A stretch of DNA of 64,000 nt. Origin: a virus (Duplodnaviria; Heunggongvirae; Uroviricota; Caudoviricetes). Under the pieces are notes generated by a model. That model was not told the origin of the DNA. It ran no database searches and saw only the letters and a program-made list of their open reading frames with translations. Made by a program: the position numbers and the translations under genes. The stretch lies in the IMG/VR virus record IMGVR_UViG_3300007734_000754, positions 1 through 64,000 of that record; one strand, given 5' to 3'. Positions 44,927 to 60,218 of this stretch are shown here, one piece after another (position 1 is the first letter of the stretch; each line of letters begins with the position of its first letter).

Positions 44927-45385
44927 ATGAAGTTAGATCTATTAAAGAAATTAATTAAAGAAGCTGTAAAAGAAGCAGTTCGAGAAGAGTTAGAAGTAAT
45001 CCTTTCAGAAGGAGCAAATTCAGATAAAGTACCTACAAAGATGGTATCTGAATATAGAGAAGCAAAACCTGCTGTAACAAAGTACGAAAAATATACCCCT
45101 ACAGTAGGTAAACCTGCTATAAAAGAGTATGTTTCTACAGGAGATCCACTTGCAGATCTCTTAAATGAAACTAGAGCTGCAATGATATCAGCTCCAGATT
45201 CTGGGTATAGGCCGGATGTATCATCAATGGTATCAGCTCCGGGATTAGGAATGCAAACAGCAATGGAAGATCATTTTGCAAGACCAGAAATAGGGGTTGA
45301 CCTGTCTCAGTTAGATTTTGTAAAAAATGCAGGAGCGATATTTAAAGCATCACAGGAAAAAGATAAACAAAGACTTGGAGCATAA
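44927..45385 (+). CDS. hypothetical structural protein
   Basis: Position. Confidence 0.35.
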   Translation: MKLDLLKKLIKEAVKEAVREELEVILSEGANSDKVPTKMVSEYREAKPAVTKYEKYTPTVGKPAIKEYVSTGDPLADLLNETRAAMISAPDSGYRPDVSSMVSAPGLGMQTAMEDHFARPEIGVDLSQLDFVKNAGAIFKASQEKDKQRLGA

Positions 45386-45795
45386 TGGCATTTAACGTAC
45401 AACAAATAAACCCTATAGATTTTCAGCCAAGTGTAGCGGTTGGTGTTGGACTACCTTTTTCTGCTACCAACGTATTTAAGTCTACATTTACAAGTCAAGA
45501 TGCATTGAAAGCAAATTTAGTTAATTTTCTATTAACGGATACTGGGGAGAGATTTTTAAATCCAAATTTAGGAGCTGGGTTGAGACCTTTACTTTTTGAC
45601 CAGATGGTAACTAGTAATACAGATGCTATTGAATCAGCAATATCAGTAGGTATTGCAAATTGGTTTCCAGAAATTTCGTTAACAAGTGTATCGACAGATA
45701 TGGCAGAAGATATTAATACAGTTACAATATACATAACGTATAAGATAAAACAAACAAATGTTCAAGATAAACTTGCAATAAACTTTCAACAATAA
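45385..45795 (+). CDS. baseplate wedge protein, gp25/GPW-like
   Basis: 136 aa. FSATNVFKSTFTSQDALKANLVNFLLTDTGERFLNPNLGAGLRPLLFDQ matches the GPW/gp25 family core. Confidence 0.6.
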   Translation: MAFNVQQINPIDFQPSVAVGVGLPFSATNVFKSTFTSQDALKANLVNFLLTDTGERFLNPNLGAGLRPLLFDQMVTSNTDAIESAISVGIANWFPEISLTSVSTDMAEDINTVTIYITYKIKQTNVQDKLAINFQQ

Positions 45796-47618
45796 TGGCT
45801 CAAGATAGAGATATAAAATACGTAAATAAGGACTTTAGTGACTATAAAAACCAGTTAATAGAATTTAGTAAAAACTATTTCCCAGATACTTATAACGACT
45901 TCTCACCTACATCACCAGGTATGATGTTTATTGAGATGGCTGCTTATGTAGGAGACGTTCTATCTTTTTACCAAGATATGCAACTTCAAGAAACATATCT
46001 TCAATATGCTAAGAATCCTGCAAACTTATATACATTAGCCTACATGATGGGTTATCGTCCTAAAGTTACTGCAGCTTCTGAGGTAGATGTAGAACTTACT
46101 CAGATAGTAGGAGCATCTGGTGGAAATCCAAACTGGACTCAAGCATTAAAACTGGGGGTTAATACAAGATTATCTTCAACAACAGGAGGTAATACTAAAT
46201 TTATTATTAATAGACCGGTAGATTTCTCATTTTCTAGTTCATACGATCCTACATATGTTACAGTAGAAACACTATCAGGAGGGCCAAGCCCAACACCTGC
46301 TACGTTTATGCTAACAAAAACCGTAAAAGCTACATCAGGAGAATTAAAAACTCAAACAGAGGTTATTACTTCTGTAGAAAAGTATAAGACGATTACTATT
46401 GCAGATACAGATATAATAGGAATTGTATCAATAACTGATAGTAGTGGAAATACGTGGTATGAAGTTCCATTTTTAGGACAAGACACTATATTTAAAGATG
46501 GTACAAATTCATCTTCAGATAGTGCACAAGTACCGTATCTATTATCACTTCAAAAAGTACCAAGAAGATTTGTAACAAGATTTGATTCTCAAGGTAATTT
46601 ATCAATTCAATTTGGATCAGGAGTTACAGGACAAGATGATGCAGCTATAACACCAGACCCAACAAATGTAGGTTTCGGATCAGTACAGGGAATTTCTAGG
46701 ATAGATTACGCATTTGATCCATCTAACTTTCTATATACACAGACATATGGATTAGCTCCTTCTAATACAACTTTATATATTAACTACTTAGTAGGAGGAG
46801 GTATTGCATCAAATGTACCAGCTAACTCAATTACAAATATAGATATAGTAAGCATAACAGGAACTGATTTAACTTATCAAACAAGTCTGCAAAGCAATAA
46901 CCCACAAGCTGCAACAGGAGGAAAATCTGGAGATTCAATAGAAGAACTTCGTCAGAATTCAATGAGAGCTTTTAATGAACAAGGAAGAGCTGTAACACTA
47001 CAGGATTACACGGTAAGAGCTTTATCACTACCTTCAAAGTATGGATCAATTGCAAAAGTATATGTAGCACAAGATCAACTAACAAATCCAAACTCAGCAT
47101 TAGATAGTATAATTGATAGTAATCCATTATCATTATCAATGTATACATTAGCTTACGATAATAATACGAATTTAATAAATACATCTACTAATTTACAGAA
47201 TAATTTAAAACAGTACCTATCACAGTATATGGTGCTTACTGATGCATTAAACATAAAAGATGCTTTTATAATTAATATCGGTGTAAATTTTGATATTATA
47301 GTACAACCTAATTATGTAGGAAGAGATGTACTTACGACTTGTGTAAGTAGCTTAAGAGATTATTTTAATATAGTTAACTGGAGTATAAATCAACCTATAA
47401 ATACATCAAATTTATATACCCTATTAGATCAAGTAAAAGGTGTACAGACAGTGCAAAAGATAGAAGTAGTTAATTTAACAGGAGGTAACTATTCACAATA
47501 TGAATACGATATTAAAGGAGCTACAAGAAATAACGTGGTATATCCTTCATACGATCCTATGATCTTTGAAGTAAAATTTCCAGATACAGATATTAAAGGC
47601 AGAATAACAACACTATAA
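45795..47618 (+). CDS. baseplate wedge protein, gp6/Baseplate-J-like
   Basis: 607 aa immediately after the gp25-like gene (conserved W-J synteny). N-terminal region consistent with the J family. Confidence 0.5.
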   Translation: MAQDRDIKYVNKDFSDYKNQLIEFSKNYFPDTYNDFSPTSPGMMFIEMAAYVGDVLSFYQDMQLQETYLQYAKNPANLYTLAYMMGYRPKVTAASEVDVELTQIVGASGGNPNWTQALKLGVNTRLSSTTGGNTKFIINRPVDFSFSSSYDPTYVTVETLSGGPSPTPATFMLTKTVKATSGELKTQTEVITSVEKYKTITIADTDIIGIVSITDSSGNTWYEVPFLGQDTIFKDGTNSSSDSAQVPYLLSLQKVPRRFVTRFDSQGNLSIQFGSGVTGQDDAAITPDPTNVGFGSVQGISRIDYAFDPSNFLYTQTYGLAPSNTTLYINYLVGGGIASNVPANSITNIDIVSITGTDLTYQTSLQSNNPQAATGGKSGDSIEELRQNSMRAFNEQGRAVTLQDYTVRALSLPSKYGSIAKVYVAQDQLTNPNSALDSIIDSNPLSLSMYTLAYDNNTNLINTSTNLQNNLKQYLSQYMVLTDALNIKDAFIINIGVNFDIIVQPNYVGRDVLTTCVSSLRDYFNIVNWSINQPINTSNLYTLLDQVKGVQTVQKIEVVNLTGGNYSQYEYDIKGATRNNVVYPSYDPMIFEVKFPDTDIKGRITTL

Positions 47619-55033: not shown

Positions 55034-56059
55034 ATGTCATTTAAAAGATTAGATCAGGAAGATATTGCAATATCAGCAGAATCAGTAGTAGCACCAGCTT
55101 GGACTGGACAGCTTACTACACTAGGTGGCACAAACTTCTTTACCGCTTCAGGTCAAGTAGGAGTAGGCTCAGGTAACTATTATTACGATATATATCAACT
55201 AGCACCGACAGCAGTAGGTTCTGCAGTTCAATTTTCAATAGGGTATGGTAACCTATACGGAAGTGGCTCAACTCCAATTAATTTAGCAGTAAGTGGAGCA
55301 TCTCCATCTTCTGTTGTATATGGACAGTACAGAACACTTATAAACGGAGATGAGAATACAGATTTTACATTTGGAAATACAACACCAAACTCTATTTTTG
55401 TAATATCAGTAAATAGATCTAGGTATAAAGAAAAATTACTACCAGGAAGTTTTAACCTAACACTTTCAGGGTCAGGAGGAGTACTAAATTTAACTGATAA
55501 CTCTCAAGCATTAACAACAATATCATACGTTGACGCAGGTAGGGTATTTGATATCGTATCAGGTTCAGATGGAATACCATACACAGGGTTAACCACAACA
55601 GGTTTTTCATTTGCATCAGGATCTTACGGTAAATTTCTACCAGATGTAGGTACTATAATATTAAATGCAGCTGCATTAAGTGGATCTGTAATAGGAGGAG
55701 GAATGGCATTACCGGTAAACGAAGGTTCAAGCGTTTTACCAACAGTTAACTTAAATACTTTTTATAGTGCATTAGCACTAGGAGGTAACTTTAAATTACA
55801 GTCTGAAGAAACAATTACATCAAACTATGTATTTGTTAGAGTTCGAAACAACGAATTTAACTACTCTACAAATCCATCAATTATATCCGGTTCAGGAGAA
55901 TTAAGATATAATATACTTGTTAACACTCCTCAAGCATATATGACAACAGTAGGTTTGTATAACGATAATAATGACCTTTTAGGAGTAGCTAAACTATCAA
56001 AACCATTATTAAAAGATTTTACAAAAGAAGCGTTAATAAGAATCAAGCTTGATTATTAA
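55034..56059 (+). CDS. tail-fibre-like protein, paralog A
   Basis: C-terminal TTVGLYNDNNDLLGVAKLSKP...IRIKLDY is shared with the next ORF. Confidence 0.45.
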   Translation: MSFKRLDQEDIAISAESVVAPAWTGQLTTLGGTNFFTASGQVGVGSGNYYYDIYQLAPTAVGSAVQFSIGYGNLYGSGSTPINLAVSGASPSSVVYGQYRTLINGDENTDFTFGNTTPNSIFVISVNRSRYKEKLLPGSFNLTLSGSGGVLNLTDNSQALTTISYVDAGRVFDIVSGSDGIPYTGLTTTGFSFASGSYGKFLPDVGTIILNAAALSGSVIGGGMALPVNEGSSVLPTVNLNTFYSALALGGNFKLQSEETITSNYVFVRVRNNEFNYSTNPSIISGSGELRYNILVNTPQAYMTTVGLYNDNNDLLGVAKLSKPLLKDFTKEALIRIKLDY

Positions 56060-56062
56060 TGA

Positions 56063-57013
56063 ATGAGCACTTACAAAAAATTAAACAAACAAGATGCCTT
56101 TATAACTACCTATACTGCCTACAAACATTGGGTAGTATCAGGTAGTCAATTTAGTGATTATAATATTGAGGTAATCCCTGGAACTACAGGAGTTTACTCA
56201 CACAGTATATCACAATTGTACTATCCTCAAAAAATATCAGGAAGTATAGTTTCACATTCATTTGACTACTATACAGATACAACACTAGATAACCCAGAGC
56301 TTAGAAACTATAATACAAGCTCTTTCGTTATTTCAATTCCAAGGTCAATGACGGGAGTTGAATTAAAACCAGGAGCTAACCTAAGTTTTTATGTAAACAA
56401 CGTACAGCAGTCAAGGTATGTAGATGTAGGGTATTGGAATAGCGGATATACAAACGATCCGTCAATAGTTACAGGTGTAAGTATAATAGGATTAGTAGAT
56501 GACGGAGAAGGAGGATTATACACCAGTGGTAGTAGCCCAAGAAATTATGTAGGAGATATTATCTACCCGCATGGTATGATAATTATTACAGATCAGAACT
56601 ATATTGACTTATTAAACATTATGTGGGTTCCATCTGCGGTAGGTCCTAAAGATACAACTTTACAAAACCGTAAAAACTTAAAACTATCTTGGCAATCAAG
56701 TCAGCCAATATTTACACATAATTATCATTGTAGAATAAGAGAATCTGAATATAATTTTACATATAACCCTACAAATCTAAGTGGATCTATAGGGACAGTT
56801 TATGATAGTAATAAAGATATTTATAGCACTTCTGGAAGTATAATTAAAGGAGATAAAAATATAAACGTAACAGGAAGTGCTTTCCAACCATATATAACAA
56901 CAGTAGGATTATATAACGATGCAAATCAACTAATAGCAGTAGGGAAAATGTCACAACCAGTTCCTAAACCAGCAAATACAGAAATGACAATAATAGTTAA
57001 AATAGATATATAA
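56063..57013 (+). CDS. tail-fibre-like protein, paralog B
   Basis: C-terminal TTVGLYNDANQLIAVGKMSQP...IVKIDI. Confidence 0.45.
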   Translation: MSTYKKLNKQDAFITTYTAYKHWVVSGSQFSDYNIEVIPGTTGVYSHSISQLYYPQKISGSIVSHSFDYYTDTTLDNPELRNYNTSSFVISIPRSMTGVELKPGANLSFYVNNVQQSRYVDVGYWNSGYTNDPSIVTGVSIIGLVDDGEGGLYTSGSSPRNYVGDIIYPHGMIIITDQNYIDLLNIMWVPSAVGPKDTTLQNRKNLKLSWQSSQPIFTHNYHCRIRESEYNFTYNPTNLSGSIGTVYDSNKDIYSTSGSIIKGDKNINVTGSAFQPYITTVGLYNDANQLIAVGKMSQPVPKPANTEMTIIVKIDI

Positions 57014-58680
57014 TGGCAATTACATTAAGAACTGACTCAGGATCAGCATTAACCTATACACAAGTAGATACTAACTTTACATCGATGTTCTACTCATCAT
57101 CACTTTCAGGAAGTACAATAACCCTGTACAGAACCGGAAGTACTGCATTAGGTATACCAAGCACAAGTGCATCATTTAATTTAACGGCAGATACACTTTG
57201 GACATCAAGTATAGACAGAATTAGTAGATTAGGGCAGGTAGACGTAACAGGTTCATTTATAAATGGATTCAAAATCTCAGCAACAGGTCTATACTCACAT
57301 GCTGAAGGATCAGGATCAACATCATCAGGAACAGGATCACACGCTGAAGGATTCGGTACACAAGCTACTACAAAGTACTCACACGCAGAAGGGTATAATA
57401 CAATAGCACAGGGCCCTTATTCTCATGCAGAAGGAAATGCTGCTATTGCGTCAGGTTGGTACTCACACGCAGAAGGAGGTGGAACAGCCAATGGAACAGG
57501 GTCACATGCAGAAGGAAGAGGAGGAATTGCATATGGAAGCTACTCACATGCTGAAGGAGATACTACCTCTGCATATGGATATGGATCACATGCAGAAGGA
57601 ACACTTACATTAGCATCAGGATCTTACTCACATGCAGAAGGGCAATACACATCAGCATCAGGAGACTACTCACATGCAGAAGGTCAAGTAACGGTAGCTA
57701 GCGGTACTTATTCACATGCTGAAGGTACTACCACTAAAGCAGGAGGTTATAGCAGTCATGCTGAAGGAAGATATGCAACAGCATCAGGACAATACTCACA
57801 TGCAGAAGGACATTATACACAAGCAGTAGGAAATTACTCACATGCTGAAGGATACTTTACAACAGCATCAGGTGATTGGTCACATGCTGAAGGATTATCT
57901 ACAAATCCAACAGGTCAGGCCTCGCATGCAGAAGGTAGAGAGACTGTAGCACAAGGTAATCAAGCACATGCTGAAGGACTTAGAACATTAGCTTTAGCAG
58001 ATTTTTCACATGCAGAAGGGTATTATACAACTGCATCAGGGCAATACTCACATGCAGAAGGAGCATTTACATTAGCATCAGGGCAATACTCACATGCAGA
58101 AGGGCAATATACAACAGCATCAGGAATGTTATCGCATGCGGAAGGTAGCACTACACACGCAAAAGGGTACATTTCGCATACTGAAGGAGCATTCACATTC
58201 GCAACAGGATCTTACTCACATGCTGAAGGGTATTATACAACAGCATCAGGAGACTACTCACACGCACAGGGCTACAGTACTGTAGCGTCAGGATCATATC
58301 AATCAGTAACAGGTCAATTTAACATATCATCATCTCAAGCAGGAGCTTTTATAATAGGAGGCGGTACATCAGATACTACTAGAAGAAATTTAGTATTTGC
58401 AGCCGGTACCTTATTCCAAGTATCGGGATCACTTTTAGTAACAGGTTCTAAAACTATTATAGGCGATAATATAATAACAGGATCACTTTTAGTAACAGGA
58501 TCTACAACACTAAATAACTTATTAATACTACAACCAAGAACAACAACACCAACAGCAGGAACTGCAACCACAGGTAGTATAATGATATCAGGAAGTTCAG
58601 GAACAAGCTTAAACTTGTATGTATATACCGGAGGAGTTACAGCAGCAGGAAACGGTTGGGGTAAAATAACTATTACATAA
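57013..58680 (+). CDS. tail fibre/adhesin with about 24 tandem 14-residue SHAEG repeats (YadA-head-like)
   Basis: Residues about 95-430 repeat (Y)SHAEGxxTxASGx with a 14-aa period. S-x-A-x-G spacing mirrors the Hep_Hag/YadA head repeat (NSVAIGxxAxAxGx). Confidence 0.55.
   Translation: MAITLRTDSGSALTYTQVDTNFTSMFYSSSLSGSTITLYRTGSTALGIPSTSASFNLTADTLWTSSIDRISRLGQVDVTGSFINGFKISATGLYSHAEGSGSTSSGTGSHAEGFGTQATTKYSHAEGYNTIAQGPYSHAEGNAAIASGWYSHAEGGGTANGTGSHAEGRGGIAYGSYSHAEGDTTSAYGYGSHAEGTLTLASGSYSHAEGQYTSASGDYSHAEGQVTVASGTYSHAEGTTTKAGGYSSHAEGRYATASGQYSHAEGHYTQAVGNYSHAEGYFTTASGDWSHAEGLSTNPTGQASHAEGRETVAQGNQAHAEGLRTLALADFSHAEGYYTTASGQYSHAEGAFTLASGQYSHAEGQYTTASGMLSHAEGSTTHAKGYISHTEGAFTFATGSYSHAEGYYTTASGDYSHAQGYSTVASGSYQSVTGQFNISSSQAGAFIIGGGTSDTTRRNLVFAAGTLFQVSGSLLVTGSKTIIGDNIITGSLLVTGSTTLNNLLILQPRTTTPTAGTATTGSIMISGSSGTSLNLYVYTGGVTAAGNGWGKITIT
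57295..58300 (+). repeat. 42-bp tandem coding repeat array
   Basis: Direct DNA repeats encoding the SHAEG units. Confidence 0.6.
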
Positions 58681-58693
58681 AACAAAATAAAAA

Positions 58694-59131
58694 ATGTGGT
58701 TATATCAAAATAAAGAAATAAGAGAATTAGAAGATATGCCCGAAGGAAGCTTCGGGTTTATCTATGAAGTAACACACCTACCAAGTGGTAGAAAATACTT
58801 AGGAAAGAAACAACTTATTTCTGTTACAAAAAAAGCTTTAGGTAAAAAAGAACTAGCTTTAATAACAGATAAAAGAGCTAGTAAATCTAAAATTGTTAAA
58901 AAAGAATCTGATTGGAAGACATATTATGGATCTCATTCAGAAATAAAACAATTACTAAAAGAAGGTAAACAGTCGGAATTTTCAAGAGAAATTCTTATAT
59001 TTACTCCAAATAAAAAATTGCATACCTATTACGAGAATAAAATGCTATTTATAAAAGGAGTAATAGAACCAGATTCTAACTATATAAATGATAATATAGA
59101 AGGAAGATATTTTAGAAAAGATTTCATATGA
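58694..59131 (+). CDS. hypothetical protein
   Basis: ORF only. Confidence 0.4.
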   Translation: MWLYQNKEIRELEDMPEGSFGFIYEVTHLPSGRKYLGKKQLISVTKKALGKKELALITDKRASKSKIVKKESDWKTYYGSHSEIKQLLKEGKQSEFSREILIFTPNKKLHTYYENKMLFIKGVIEPDSNYINDNIEGRYFRKDFI

Positions 59132-59705: not shown

Positions 59706-60218
59706 ATGGATATTACACAACAAATTTTAAAACCACAGACTCTTTCAGGAGATGTTATTAGCTTATTAAATGAAAGATTAGGAGATGAGTACACAGCTCA
59801 CTACTTCTACAGAAATGCATCTAACTGGTGTGAGGAGAAAGGATACTTAAAAGCAGCAGCATTCTTTGCAACAGAAGCATCTACCGAATTAGAGCATGCT
59901 CAGAAAGTACAAAAATACCTAGTAGACTGGAATACAGTTCCAACTATTCCGGCTGTCAACATACAACCTGGCTTTAATTCATTAATTGACATTGTAAATA
60001 AAGCATACCAGTTAGAGTATAACCTATTCTTACAATACAACGCAAATTCAGCAGAGATATTTCCAGGAGATATGGCTACCTTTGATTTCTTACAAGAACT
60101 AAGACAAATTCAAAATGCATCTGTAGCAGAGTACGCAACTCTTTTAAATGGAGCAGAATTAGTAGATATCAATAATAAGTTAGATGTTCTTTATTACGAA
60201 AATCAATACTTCGGATAA
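59706..60218 (+). CDS. ferritin-like protein
   Basis: LNERLGDEYTAHYFYRNASNWC...AAAFFATEASTELEHAQKV...AYQLEYNLF aligns with the ferritin four-helix bundle and its ferroxidase Glu/His positions (E17, E50-x-x-H53, E94 by FtnA numbering). Confidence 0.55.
   Translation: MDITQQILKPQTLSGDVISLLNERLGDEYTAHYFYRNASNWCEEKGYLKAAAFFATEASTELEHAQKVQKYLVDWNTVPTIPAVNIQPGFNSLIDIVNKAYQLEYNLFLQYNANSAEIFPGDMATFDFLQELRQIQNASVAEYATLLNGAELVDINNKLDVLYYENQYFG

Follow-up and report, generated by a model that had tools for sequence, protein, structure and literature searches.

We find that the gene at 57013..58680 of the window (the whole stretch of DNA that was analysed, 64,000 nucleotides) probably encodes a homotrimeric tail fibre built from four modules: an anchor, a length-tunable beta-roll shaft, a cap and a specificity tip. 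We put the probability of this reading at about 0.72. It builds on what was observed of the fibre's repeats, domain family, predicted fold, genomic context, module mosaicism and layer-number variation. The features on which the argument draws are as follows.

45385..47618 (45385-45795 and 45795-47618), plus strand: baseplate wedge genes (PHROG, E 8e-16 to 2e-12)
55034..57013 (55034-56059 and 56063-57013), plus strand: two tandem paralogues, conserved syntenic neighbours upstream of the fibre
57013..58680, plus strand: tail-fibre gene, 555 aa; homologous modules of Flavobacterium phage vB_FspM_immuto (immuto) are annotated tail fiber or tail spike
57013..57243 (aa 1-77), plus strand: N-terminal anchor, presumed to dock on the baseplate, starting with the motif MAITLRTDSGSALTYTQVDTNF
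57244..57285 (aa 78-91), plus strand: degenerate N-terminal capping layer VTGSFINGFKISAT, in register with the array (Phe at position 5, Asn at 7, Gly at 8)
57286..58290 (aa 92-426), plus strand: 24 SHAEG layers (register, Pfam, PDB matches, AF2, Foldseek)
58291..58437 (aa 427-475), plus strand: last degenerate layer and conserved C-cap GSYQSVTGQFNISSSQAGAFIIGGGTSDTTRRNLVFAAGTLFQVSGS, 43-70% identity in 27 of 27 syntenic fibres
58438..58677 (aa 476-555), plus strand: C-terminal tip, candidate receptor-binding module, with TGSLLVTGS repeats and the terminal GSIMISGSSGTSLNLYVYTGGVTAAGNGWGKITIT
58694..59131, plus strand: SegE-like GIY-YIG homing endonuclease (Pfam PF19835, E 4.2e-26), immediately 3' of the fibre

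The open reading frame is present exactly as an earlier note on this DNA had given it, and its ATG overlaps the upstream TAA by 1 nt (TAATG). The note had counted about 24 tandem 14-residue SHAEG repeats, and we likewise found 24 units in register, with the consensus layer G-x-Y-S-H-A-E-G-x-x-T-x-A-S. Its repeat bounds (about aa 95-430, DNA 57295-58300) move slightly, to aa 92-426 and 57286-58290, when the units are set in register. Every layer is 14 aa long except unit 5, which has 13. Between aa 96 and 420 there are 24 copies of the motif H[AT][EQ]G, spaced by 14 residues in 22 intervals and by 13 in one. Numbering layer positions after PMC9543794, His at position 5 and Gly at position 8 are invariant across the 24 layers, followed by Ser4, Ala6 and Glu7 (23/24 each), Gly1 (22/24), Ala13 (21/24) and Thr11 (20/24), and positions 2, 9, 10 and 12 are highly variable. 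A degenerate layer also stands on the C side of the array, at aa 427-440 (GSYQSVTGQFNISS). At the DNA level, Tandem Repeats Finder reports a period of 42 (also 84 and 126) at 57586-58266, with matches of only 62-67%. The fibre gene has a G+C content of 41%, compared with 33% for the window, which we attribute to the Gly/Ala/Ser/His-rich repeat and not to foreign origin. Small open reading frames within the repeats or antisense to them (57425-57613, 58094-58285 and, on the minus strand, 58335-58685) were treated as by-products of the repeat. An exact-protein look-up returned no record of the fibre in public assemblies.

The assignment of these repeats to a predicted left-handed parallel beta-roll of the YadA/Hep_Hag type is fully supported by domain searches and structure modelling. 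Pfam PF05658 (YadA_head, Hep_Hag) matches 11 stretches of the fibre with 64.2 bits, against a gathering cut-off of 25 bits, and because the E-value is 1.2e-17, the repeat signal lies far beyond chance. The PDB matches found with phmmer are adhesin heads only, namely BpaC (7o23, E 2e-10), YadA (1p9h), BoaA (3s6l) and CbpF. In the AF2 monomer, pLDDT is 70-98 across aa 170-440, with strands every 14 residues, and falls below 50 over the first 99 and the last 82 residues. When this model was compared with the PDB by Foldseek, ranks 1 to 13 were all YadA-like heads, that is, left-handed beta-rolls; BoaA superposes with a local rmsd of 1.6 A over 125 columns (TMt 0.67-0.71). Global TM-scores of the monomer are low because the long rod bends. 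The layers themselves have the features of the family: Gly at position 8 throughout, small residues at positions 4, 6, 11 and 13 in 83-96% of layers, and a period of 14 in 22 of 23 intervals. The beta-roll claim of the earlier note thus stands, and the non-beta-roll fold that it named as refuting did not appear in AF2 or Foldseek.

The genomic context is that of a phage tail. Contiguous genes on the same strand run from the baseplate wedge genes, assigned to phrog_43 and phrog_261 (45385-45795) and to phrog_219 and phrog_10646 (45795-47618), to the fibre gene, which ends the baseplate/tail module. The two tandem paralogues immediately upstream have no PHROG or Pfam assignment above threshold, and served as the backbone marker for module comparison. 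The SegE-like endonuclease has homologues among the related loci (40 BLAST hits), lies just 3' of the fibre slot where seen, and marks the right border of this variable slot. The window is about 80% nucleotide-identical to immuto over 28% of a 19-kb query, and the fibre gene corresponds by synteny to the tail fiber and tail spike genes of immuto. The source phage is probably an Immutovirus-like myophage with a Flavobacterium or other Bacteroidota host. A scan of a genome collection for the cap motif found three loci; one of them, L082, says nothing about bacterial hosts because it belongs to this same phage lineage and had been binned into a MAG.

Comparison with immuto reveals how the slot is shuffled. 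Its gp166 ('tail fiber') and gp167 ('tail spike') share the MAITLR...NF N-terminal anchor of our fibre, with the same flanking genes, and its gp169 ('tail spike protein', QQO92087, 1053 aa) has at its C-terminal end about 11 SHAEG layers, followed by the same cap and a tip related to ours, with 47% identity over aa 262-540 of our fibre. In immuto, four genes occupy the slot and the SHAEG module sits on a different, long N-terminal part, whereas here a single 555-aa gene has a gp166/167-type anchor fused directly to a 24-layer roll. Related viral contigs for which the slot was recovered usually have one MAITLR-type fibre with SHAEG repeats; the immuto-like branch has several fibre genes in the slot, with few or no repeats.

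The modules differ in how they are inherited. Almost every syntenic locus has a fibre with a MAITLR-type start. The anchor is 56-58% identical to the N-termini of the two different immuto fibres gp166 and gp167, and its identity tracks the phage backbone, dropping from 72% to 42% with backbone identity. Cap identity holds at its 43-70% regardless of backbone or tip, and the cap region includes the most conserved stretch of alignment A1, with an AF2 pLDDT of 65-89. The tip is 77-79% identical to those of L035 and L039, loci whose backbone gene is only 52% identical, and shows no relationship (28-36%) to the tips found on the closest backbones, L002 and L004. We therefore see both features expected of a tail fibre, an N-terminus common to different fibres within and between phages and a tip whose identity is decoupled from the backbone. 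No fold was assigned to the anchor because its AF2 pLDDT is below 50, nor to the tip, because its pLDDT is about 40. The tip is rare in the protein database: the C-terminal 115 aa used as a query returned only two short matches, so nothing was learnt from them about its fold.

Layer number also varies. Syntenic fibres have 10 to 44 layers, or about seven in L082, and 78 of 184 alignment gaps in the repeat region (42%) are exact multiples of 14 aa, the multiples of 42 bp that the earlier note had suggested looking for. The note's copy-number claim holds in that related phages differ by 14-aa steps; its description of the array as a hotspot, prone to assembly collapse, does not fit the DNA. The 42-bp units are not near-identical, having a mean DNA identity of 62% (range 43-88%), and the longest exact DNA repeat in the array is 29 nt and occurs once. 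Whole-unit differences in copy number are nevertheless found among relatives, and layer-number variation is on an evolutionary, not a population, timescale. That the 24 layers are themselves an artefact of a collapsed or expanded tandem array is very unlikely, even though tandem repeats are prone to mis-assembly. Typical reads and k-mers are longer than the 29-nt repeat, the frame is unbroken across all 24 units, and equally repetitive orthologous arrays re-assembled from independent metagenomes show 0-3 mismatches over 1.2-4.2 kb. Because the units are only 62% identical and independent metagenomes gave identical arrays, collapse and rapid slippage are both improbable.

A more serious alternative, although still an unlikely one, is that the receptor is bound by the beta-roll itself, which would act as a head like those of YadA, UspA1 and CbpF, with the Tyr-rich side of the roll binding a repetitive host polysaccharide or protein and the tip serving as a mere cap. 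Changes in layer number or surface residues would then change host range. YadA binds collagen, and does so via the side of its beta-roll head. Since adhesin heads bind sideways and Tyr, Gln and Thr are exposed here, the roll could be a genuine binding surface and not a spacer. Consistent with this, the hypervariable positions 2, 9, 10 and 12 are rich in Tyr, Gln, Ser and Thr, close relatives differ in layer number, the module turns up combined with a wide range of unrelated N- and C-termini, and adhesin rolls bind ligands on their surface (PMC9543794). However, layer numbers from 7 to 44 are more than one would expect a specific binding site to tolerate. Many homologues have further C-terminal domains, such as the S74 (PF13884) and G2 (PF11962) chaperones, as typical receptor-binding fibres do, and among the syntenic fibres exchange without regard to the backbone is seen for the tip and not for the roll. 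The earlier note had cast the roll as the receptor-binding part; the module exchanged among relatives is the C-terminal tip.

We give hardly any credence to the gene being bacterial-type cargo, a 'yadA homologue' moron encoding an adhesin or virulence factor and no part of the virion. Some phage genome papers do read YadA-like genes in this way (PMC3728262), and in one phage record a homologue carries the label 'hemagglutinin/invasin'. Against this, translational coupling ties the gene to the end of the baseplate module, and the N-terminus of its product is common to other tail fibres. Even at E<=10, Pfam finds no YadA-type beta-barrel anchor (PF03895) in the fibre, whose C-terminus is the phage cap and tip. 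The stalk/neck family PF05662, which the earlier note had proposed for checking, is likewise absent from the Pfam matches together with its relatives, and the AF2 model has no helix of 4 residues or more. Read by eye, the N-terminus lacks the hydrophobic core of a signal peptide. None of the 120 best homologues has an autotransporter anchor, and many have phage fibre chaperone domains. The fibre is not an autotransporter, and should be annotated as a tail fibre with a YadA-like beta-roll shaft and not as a hypothetical protein, 'hemagglutinin/invasin' or virulence gene.

Returning to the four-module fibre, we infer a trimer, a His/Glu core and a division of labour between shaft and tip. The anchor (about 77 aa, MAITLR...DTNF) would dock on the baseplate and be inherited vertically. 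At a rise of 4.8 A per layer, the 24-layer roll would form a rigid trimeric shaft of about 12 nm, in which Ser4, Ala6, Thr11 and Ala13 would fill the narrow interior of each chain and the variable, Tyr-rich positions 2, 9, 10 and 12 would face solvent. The roll may act mainly as a length-tunable shaft, possibly with weak, avidity-type lateral contacts to glycans, and would evolve through gain and loss of whole 14-aa layers. The conserved cap, about 45 aa, would follow the roll, and the 80-aa tip, swapped horizontally, would be the main specificity module and is the part most likely to determine which receptor is bound. If so, the family shows phages tuning fibre length in 4.8 A steps while recombining tips on a constant scaffold, a modularity that could help to predict host range and to engineer chimeric fibres for phages of Bacteroidota.

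The core of the putative trimer is of particular interest. In the adhesin layer, Gly at position 8 is invariant and positions 5 and 7 form the trimer core, occupied by Val/Ile in YadA and by Thr and Thr/Asn/Ser in BpaC (PMC9543794). Alignment with phmmer places S-H-A-E-G of the fibre on S-T-A-x-G of BpaC and S-V-A-I-G of YadA, and homologues have canonical hydrophobic layers, such as AVAIG, in register beside SHAEG layers. Across about 3,700 layers, His5 and Glu7 are near-invariant, and positions 2, 9, 10 and 12 carry almost no information. Judging from these alignments, His5 and Glu7 would sit at the positions of the adhesins' hydrophobic trimer core, and three rolls would pack around a three-fold axis. 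Because the pair would occupy this core, His-Glu pairs may zip the three chains together, perhaps with bound ions. We tentatively suggest, at somewhat less than even odds and from sequence comparison, that SHAEG layers define, among the YadA-like beta-rolls, a large subtype specific to viruses, in which His/Glu replaces the hydrophobic core layer by layer to give an ionic zipper, possibly ion-filled or sensitive to pH or metals. To our knowledge, positions 5 and 7 are hydrophobic in every solved YadA-like head except BpaC, and we know of no solved structure with a His/Glu trimer core in such a roll. Note that burying three Glu in each of 24 layers would be electrostatically demanding, and packing in the fibre may differ from that in adhesins. 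If the His/Glu core is real, the trimer of this fibre would include 72 His and 72 Glu, and fibre stability or assembly could be coupled to the chemical environment. With thousands of viral proteins having the invariant pair, this may amount to a novel design of fibre core.

The roll module as such is far from the distinctive architecture that the earlier note had seen in it. We found 25,043 representatives of 50%-identity clusters at E<=1e-3 (5,818 at E<=1e-30), and many viral UniProt entries, from uncultured Caudovirales and giant viruses, are named 'YadA-like head domain-containing'. A YadA domain together with S74 was published in a pelagiphage fibre in 2014 (Mizuno et al., PMC3909814), beyond which our searches found nothing on YadA-like beta-roll tail fibres; a CASP16 match was rejected, as it concerns T5 pb1 and an unrelated beta-roll. 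YadA-like rolls in phage fibres are thus already known and very common, and the unstudied part is the His/Glu pair. As far as our searches reached, reports on YadA-like phage fibres do not describe this motif, and a literature search for the SHAEG motif returned only author-name noise.

The pelagiphage fibre, the tail fiber of Verrucomicrobia phage P8625 and the UniProt proteins all have the same repeat module in a phage fibre, often followed by an intramolecular chaperone domain, whereas our fibre has no S74 or G2 domain and ends in a rare tip. The T4 gp37/gp12-type fibre domains offer a possible analogy only to the putative His/Glu core: there, His (HxH) ladders coordinate ions on the three-fold axis in place of a hydrophobic core. 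Their fold is an interdigitated triple beta-helix or needle, whereas the fibre would consist of three separate beta-rolls. Unlike trimeric autotransporter adhesins, the fibre has no membrane anchor, coiled-coil stalk, neck or signal peptide and is encoded in a phage baseplate module; where adhesin heads have a neck, it has a phage-specific cap motif, AFIIGNG...R.NLVFA. At the core positions 5 and 7 it has invariant His/Glu, in contrast to the Val/Ile of YadA and the Thr/Asn/Ser of BpaC. Otherwise, it resembles the YadA-like heads (YadA 1P9H, BpaC 7O23, BoaA 3S6L, AtaA 3WP8 and CbpF) in its 14-residue layers, the invariant Gly at position 8, the small Ser, Ala, Thr and Ala at positions 4, 6, 11 and 13, and a predicted fold that superposes on theirs. 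Furthermore, the arrays of these fibres grow and shrink by whole layers, as has been proposed for BpaC (PMC9543794).

The fibre gene encodes a protein whose central part is an ordered array of 14-residue layers, and an earlier note made from the sequence alone had its coordinates, period and repeat count all right. The array and its flanks are as follows.

57013-58680, + strand: fibre ORF, 555 aa
57286-58290, + strand: repeat array in register (aa 92-426), from motif spacing
aa 78-91: degenerate flanking layer on the N-terminal side, VTGSFINGFKISAT
aa 427-440: degenerate flanking layer on the C-terminal side, GSYQSVTGQFNISS

There are 24 copies of the motif H[AT][EQ]G, spaced by 14 residues in 22 cases and by 13 in one, with the layer consensus G-x-Y-S-H-A-E-G-x-x-T-x-A-S. 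His5 and Gly8 (residues numbered by layer position) are present in 24 of the 24 layers, Ser4, Ala6 and Glu7 in 23, and Gly1, Ala13 and Thr11 in 20 to 22; positions 2, 9, 10 and 12 carry nearly no information. The fibre ATG shares one base with the TAA of the preceding gene (TAATG). G+C content is 41% in the fibre gene versus 33% in the whole window, a rise that we tentatively attribute to the Gly/Ala/Ser/His-rich repeat and not to foreign origin.

Three independent tests (Pfam, phmmer against the PDB and an AlphaFold2 model) agree that this array is of the YadA-head type. Pfam YadA_head (PF05658) matches the fibre at 64.2 bits, above its gathering cut-off of 25 (E = 1.2 × 10−17; 11 stretches). 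Even at E ≤ 10 it was the sole Pfam family detected, with neither an anchor nor the stalk/neck family PF05662, which the earlier note had also proposed to look for. Searching all PDB sequences with phmmer returned only trimeric autotransporter adhesin heads (BpaC 7o23, YadA 1p9h, BoaA 3s6l and CbpF); the BpaC match (E = 2 × 10−10) covers aa 148-428, and S-H-A-E-G pairs with S-T-A-x-G in BpaC and S-V-A-I-G in YadA. The AlphaFold2 monomer, built from an alignment of 21 sequences, has strands every 14 residues and a pLDDT of 70 to 98 across aa 170-440, and is weak at both termini and in layers 1 to 6, which are more degenerate. Foldseek ranks 1 to 13 in the PDB were all YadA-like heads (BpaC, CbpF, AtaA, BoaA, EibD, UspA1 and YadA), with a best local fit of 1.6 Å rmsd over 125 columns and TMt of 0.67 to 0.71; global TM-scores are low because the 24-layer monomer rod bends. 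Since the top ranks are YadA-like, the structure-based refutation that the earlier note had proposed for its YadA/Hep_Hag-type beta-roll fails, and the main point of the earlier interpretation, that the repeats are real and would form such a roll in a tail fibre, is correct.

Layer numbering follows the BpaC structure, in which Gly8 is invariant and each layer rises 4.8 Å and twists by ~5.7° (PMC9543794). Transferred by alignment, Ser4, Ala6, Thr11 and Ala13 would point to the chain interior, His5 and Glu7 to the three-fold core, and positions 2, 9, 10 and 12 to solvent, an assignment with which the conservation pattern of the fibre layers agrees. Homologues carry canonical hydrophobic layers (AVAIG, VVIG and VGLG) in register beside SHAEG layers, which supports positional equivalence. 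From these core positions and in-register layers we infer a trimeric rod of ~115-125 Å, in which His-Glu pairs between chains, perhaps joined by ions, would form a ladder along the core.

Relatives suggest how such a fibre evolves. We collected 80 related viral contigs using the upstream neighbour gene as a backbone marker, and compared fibre modules segment by segment against backbone identity. Most recovered slots hold one gene that starts MAITLR..GSALT..Q.DTNF and has SHAEG layers; a branch more like Flavobacterium phage vB_FspM_immuto has two to four fibre genes that share the MAITLR-type N-terminus and in which SHAEG layers are few or absent. The N-terminal domain follows the backbone (72% identical where the backbone is 72% identical, down to 42 to 44% where it is 52%), and the cap (~aa 427-475) is 43 to 70% identical in all compared syntenic fibres. 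The tip (aa 476-555) is uncoupled: its best matches (77 to 79%, loci L035 and L039) have backbones just 52% identical, yet the two closest backbones (L002 and L004) carry unrelated tips (28 to 36%). The MAITLR-type scaffold carries six or more tip classes, and that of the window is rare, with two matches in a large protein database. The comparison points to a clean modular anatomy, with an anchor inherited vertically, a shaft of variable length, a cap that stays constant and a tip exchanged horizontally. The SHAEG array of the window has no interruptions; ~100-400-aa non-repeat inserts break those of L002 (aa ~320-465), L045/L048 (aa ~350-480) and L027 (a 1393-aa fibre).

Layer number ranges from 10 to 44 across 27 syntenic fibres, with ~7 in a MAG-binned member. 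The earlier note had suggested looking for indels in multiples of 42 bp, and at the protein level 14-aa steps are frequent: of 184 repeat-region gaps (from pairs sharing 65% identity or more), 78 have a length that is an exact multiple of 14 aa and many others sum to 14, although a global aligner favors such gaps in periodic sequence. Copy number shifts on an evolutionary timescale. The further suggestion that the DNA repeats are a hotspot for assembly collapse and copy-number change is unlikely. The 42-bp units are 43 to 88% identical (mean 62%), with units 19 and 20 the only close pair (86%); no exact repeat exceeds 29 nt, a length reached once, and Tandem Repeats Finder detects the 42-bp period with matches of just 62 to 67%. 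Orthologous arrays of 13 to 39 layers from independent metagenomes (L002/L003, L027/L028/L031, L045/L046 and L035-L037) differ by 0 to 3 mismatches over 1.2 to 4.2 kb. Divergent units and matching independent arrays therefore make collapse and high-frequency slippage improbable.

Because layer number is free to vary and tips are exchanged between backbones, the roll is best seen as a shaft of tunable length, and the tip would be what mainly determines specificity. Alternatively, the variable, Tyr-rich face of the roll might bind a host glycan of repetitive structure, much as the heads of adhesins bind ligands; we regard this as rather improbable, and a shaft ending in a specificity-determining tip remains our preferred reading.

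The neighborhood of the fibre slot comprises the following genes.

45385-45795 and 45795-47618, + strand: baseplate wedge genes (PHROG baseplate-wedge families)
55034-56059 and 56063-57013, + strand: two tandem paralogous genes directly upstream of the fibre
58694-59131, + strand: SegE-like GIY-YIG homing endonuclease (PF19835, E = 4 × 10−26), 13 nt 3' of the fibre gene
59706-60218, + strand: ferritin-like protein (PF00210, E = 1 × 10−19), also in the related MAG-binned contig L082 (8134-8694)
L013 10337-10660, L035 7112-7432, L037 11917-12237, L039 7564-7884 and L040 11816-12136: extra ~106-aa ORF, M(E/T)xTWQI.DTKR...

Several large function-unassigned genes lie between the baseplate wedge genes and the fibre. 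Each tandem gene is 27 to 30% identical to the immuto homologue of the other, and the two have a common C-terminal motif (...ITTVG(L/M)YND.N.L..V.K.S.P..K); PHROG and Pfam gave no assignment beyond a sub-threshold DUF5512 match, and they are probably baseplate or fibre-adaptor proteins. In related loci the endonuclease, where found, is just 3' of the fibre slot (40 BLAST matches among the loci's ORFs); during co-infection, a homing endonuclease next to the variable slot could help cassettes to be exchanged. Its 92%-identical immuto homologue is annotated 'NAD synthetase', as is PHROG 447, which looks like a misannotation. The ~106-aa ORF, possibly a fibre assembly factor, sits between fibre and endonuclease in some related phages, including L035, L037 and L039, which share the window's tip type, and is absent from the window.

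YadA-like modules in phage fibres are already known and abundant. Searched exhaustively with phmmer, 1.84 billion cluster representatives gave 25,043 matches at E ≤ 10−3, 16,906 at E ≤ 10−10 and 5,818 at E ≤ 10−30, some of them proteins of 2,000 to 3,500 aa with several arrays, and a word-indexed search gave at least 7,979 candidates. The domains that accompany the module are those usual in phage fibres (Peptidase_S74 PF13884 and Peptidase_G2 PF11962), no autotransporter anchor occurs in the best 120 homologues, and homologues in phage records go under the labels tail fiber, tail spike or hemagglutinin/invasin. Many viral BFVD entries are named 'YadA-like head domain-containing protein', among them giant-virus members (Pithovirus LCPAC, Klosneuvirus, Mimivirus LCMiAC01 and Fadolivirus); in some giant-virus beta-roll proteins, at most 46% identical over the aligned part, the module is joined to collagen triple-helix repeats or to a serralysin-like protease. 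'yadA homologues' were noted in several phages in 2013 (PMC3728262) and a YadA domain in a pelagiphage fibre in 2014 (PMC3909814). Literature searches on the SHAEG motif and on YadA-like phage fibres turned up no description of the His/Glu motif, and phmmer and Foldseek against the PDB no solved phage structure with it. What remains of interest is the uncharacterised, inferred His/Glu core of the viral subtype of the beta-roll, together with the modular anatomy of the fibre.

The right part of the window is ~80% identical in nucleotide sequence to immuto, a 160-kb myovirus of the genus Immutovirus, over 28% of a 19-kb query. Between the homologues of the genes at 56063 and 58694, immuto has four genes (gp166 'tail fiber', gp167 'tail spike', gp168 and gp169 'tail spike'), whereas the window has a single fibre gene. 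The first ~50 fibre residues are 56 to 58% identical to the gp166 and gp167 N-termini, and the C-terminal part of gp169, with ~11 SHAEG layers, the same cap and a related tip, is 47% identical to residues 262-540; the protein thus combines known fibre modules in a mosaic. Unlike trimeric autotransporter adhesins, it is without their anchor, stalk, neck and signal peptide (from Pfam, the AlphaFold2 model and the N-terminal sequence): it belongs to the YadA_head repeat family and is not a trimeric autotransporter.
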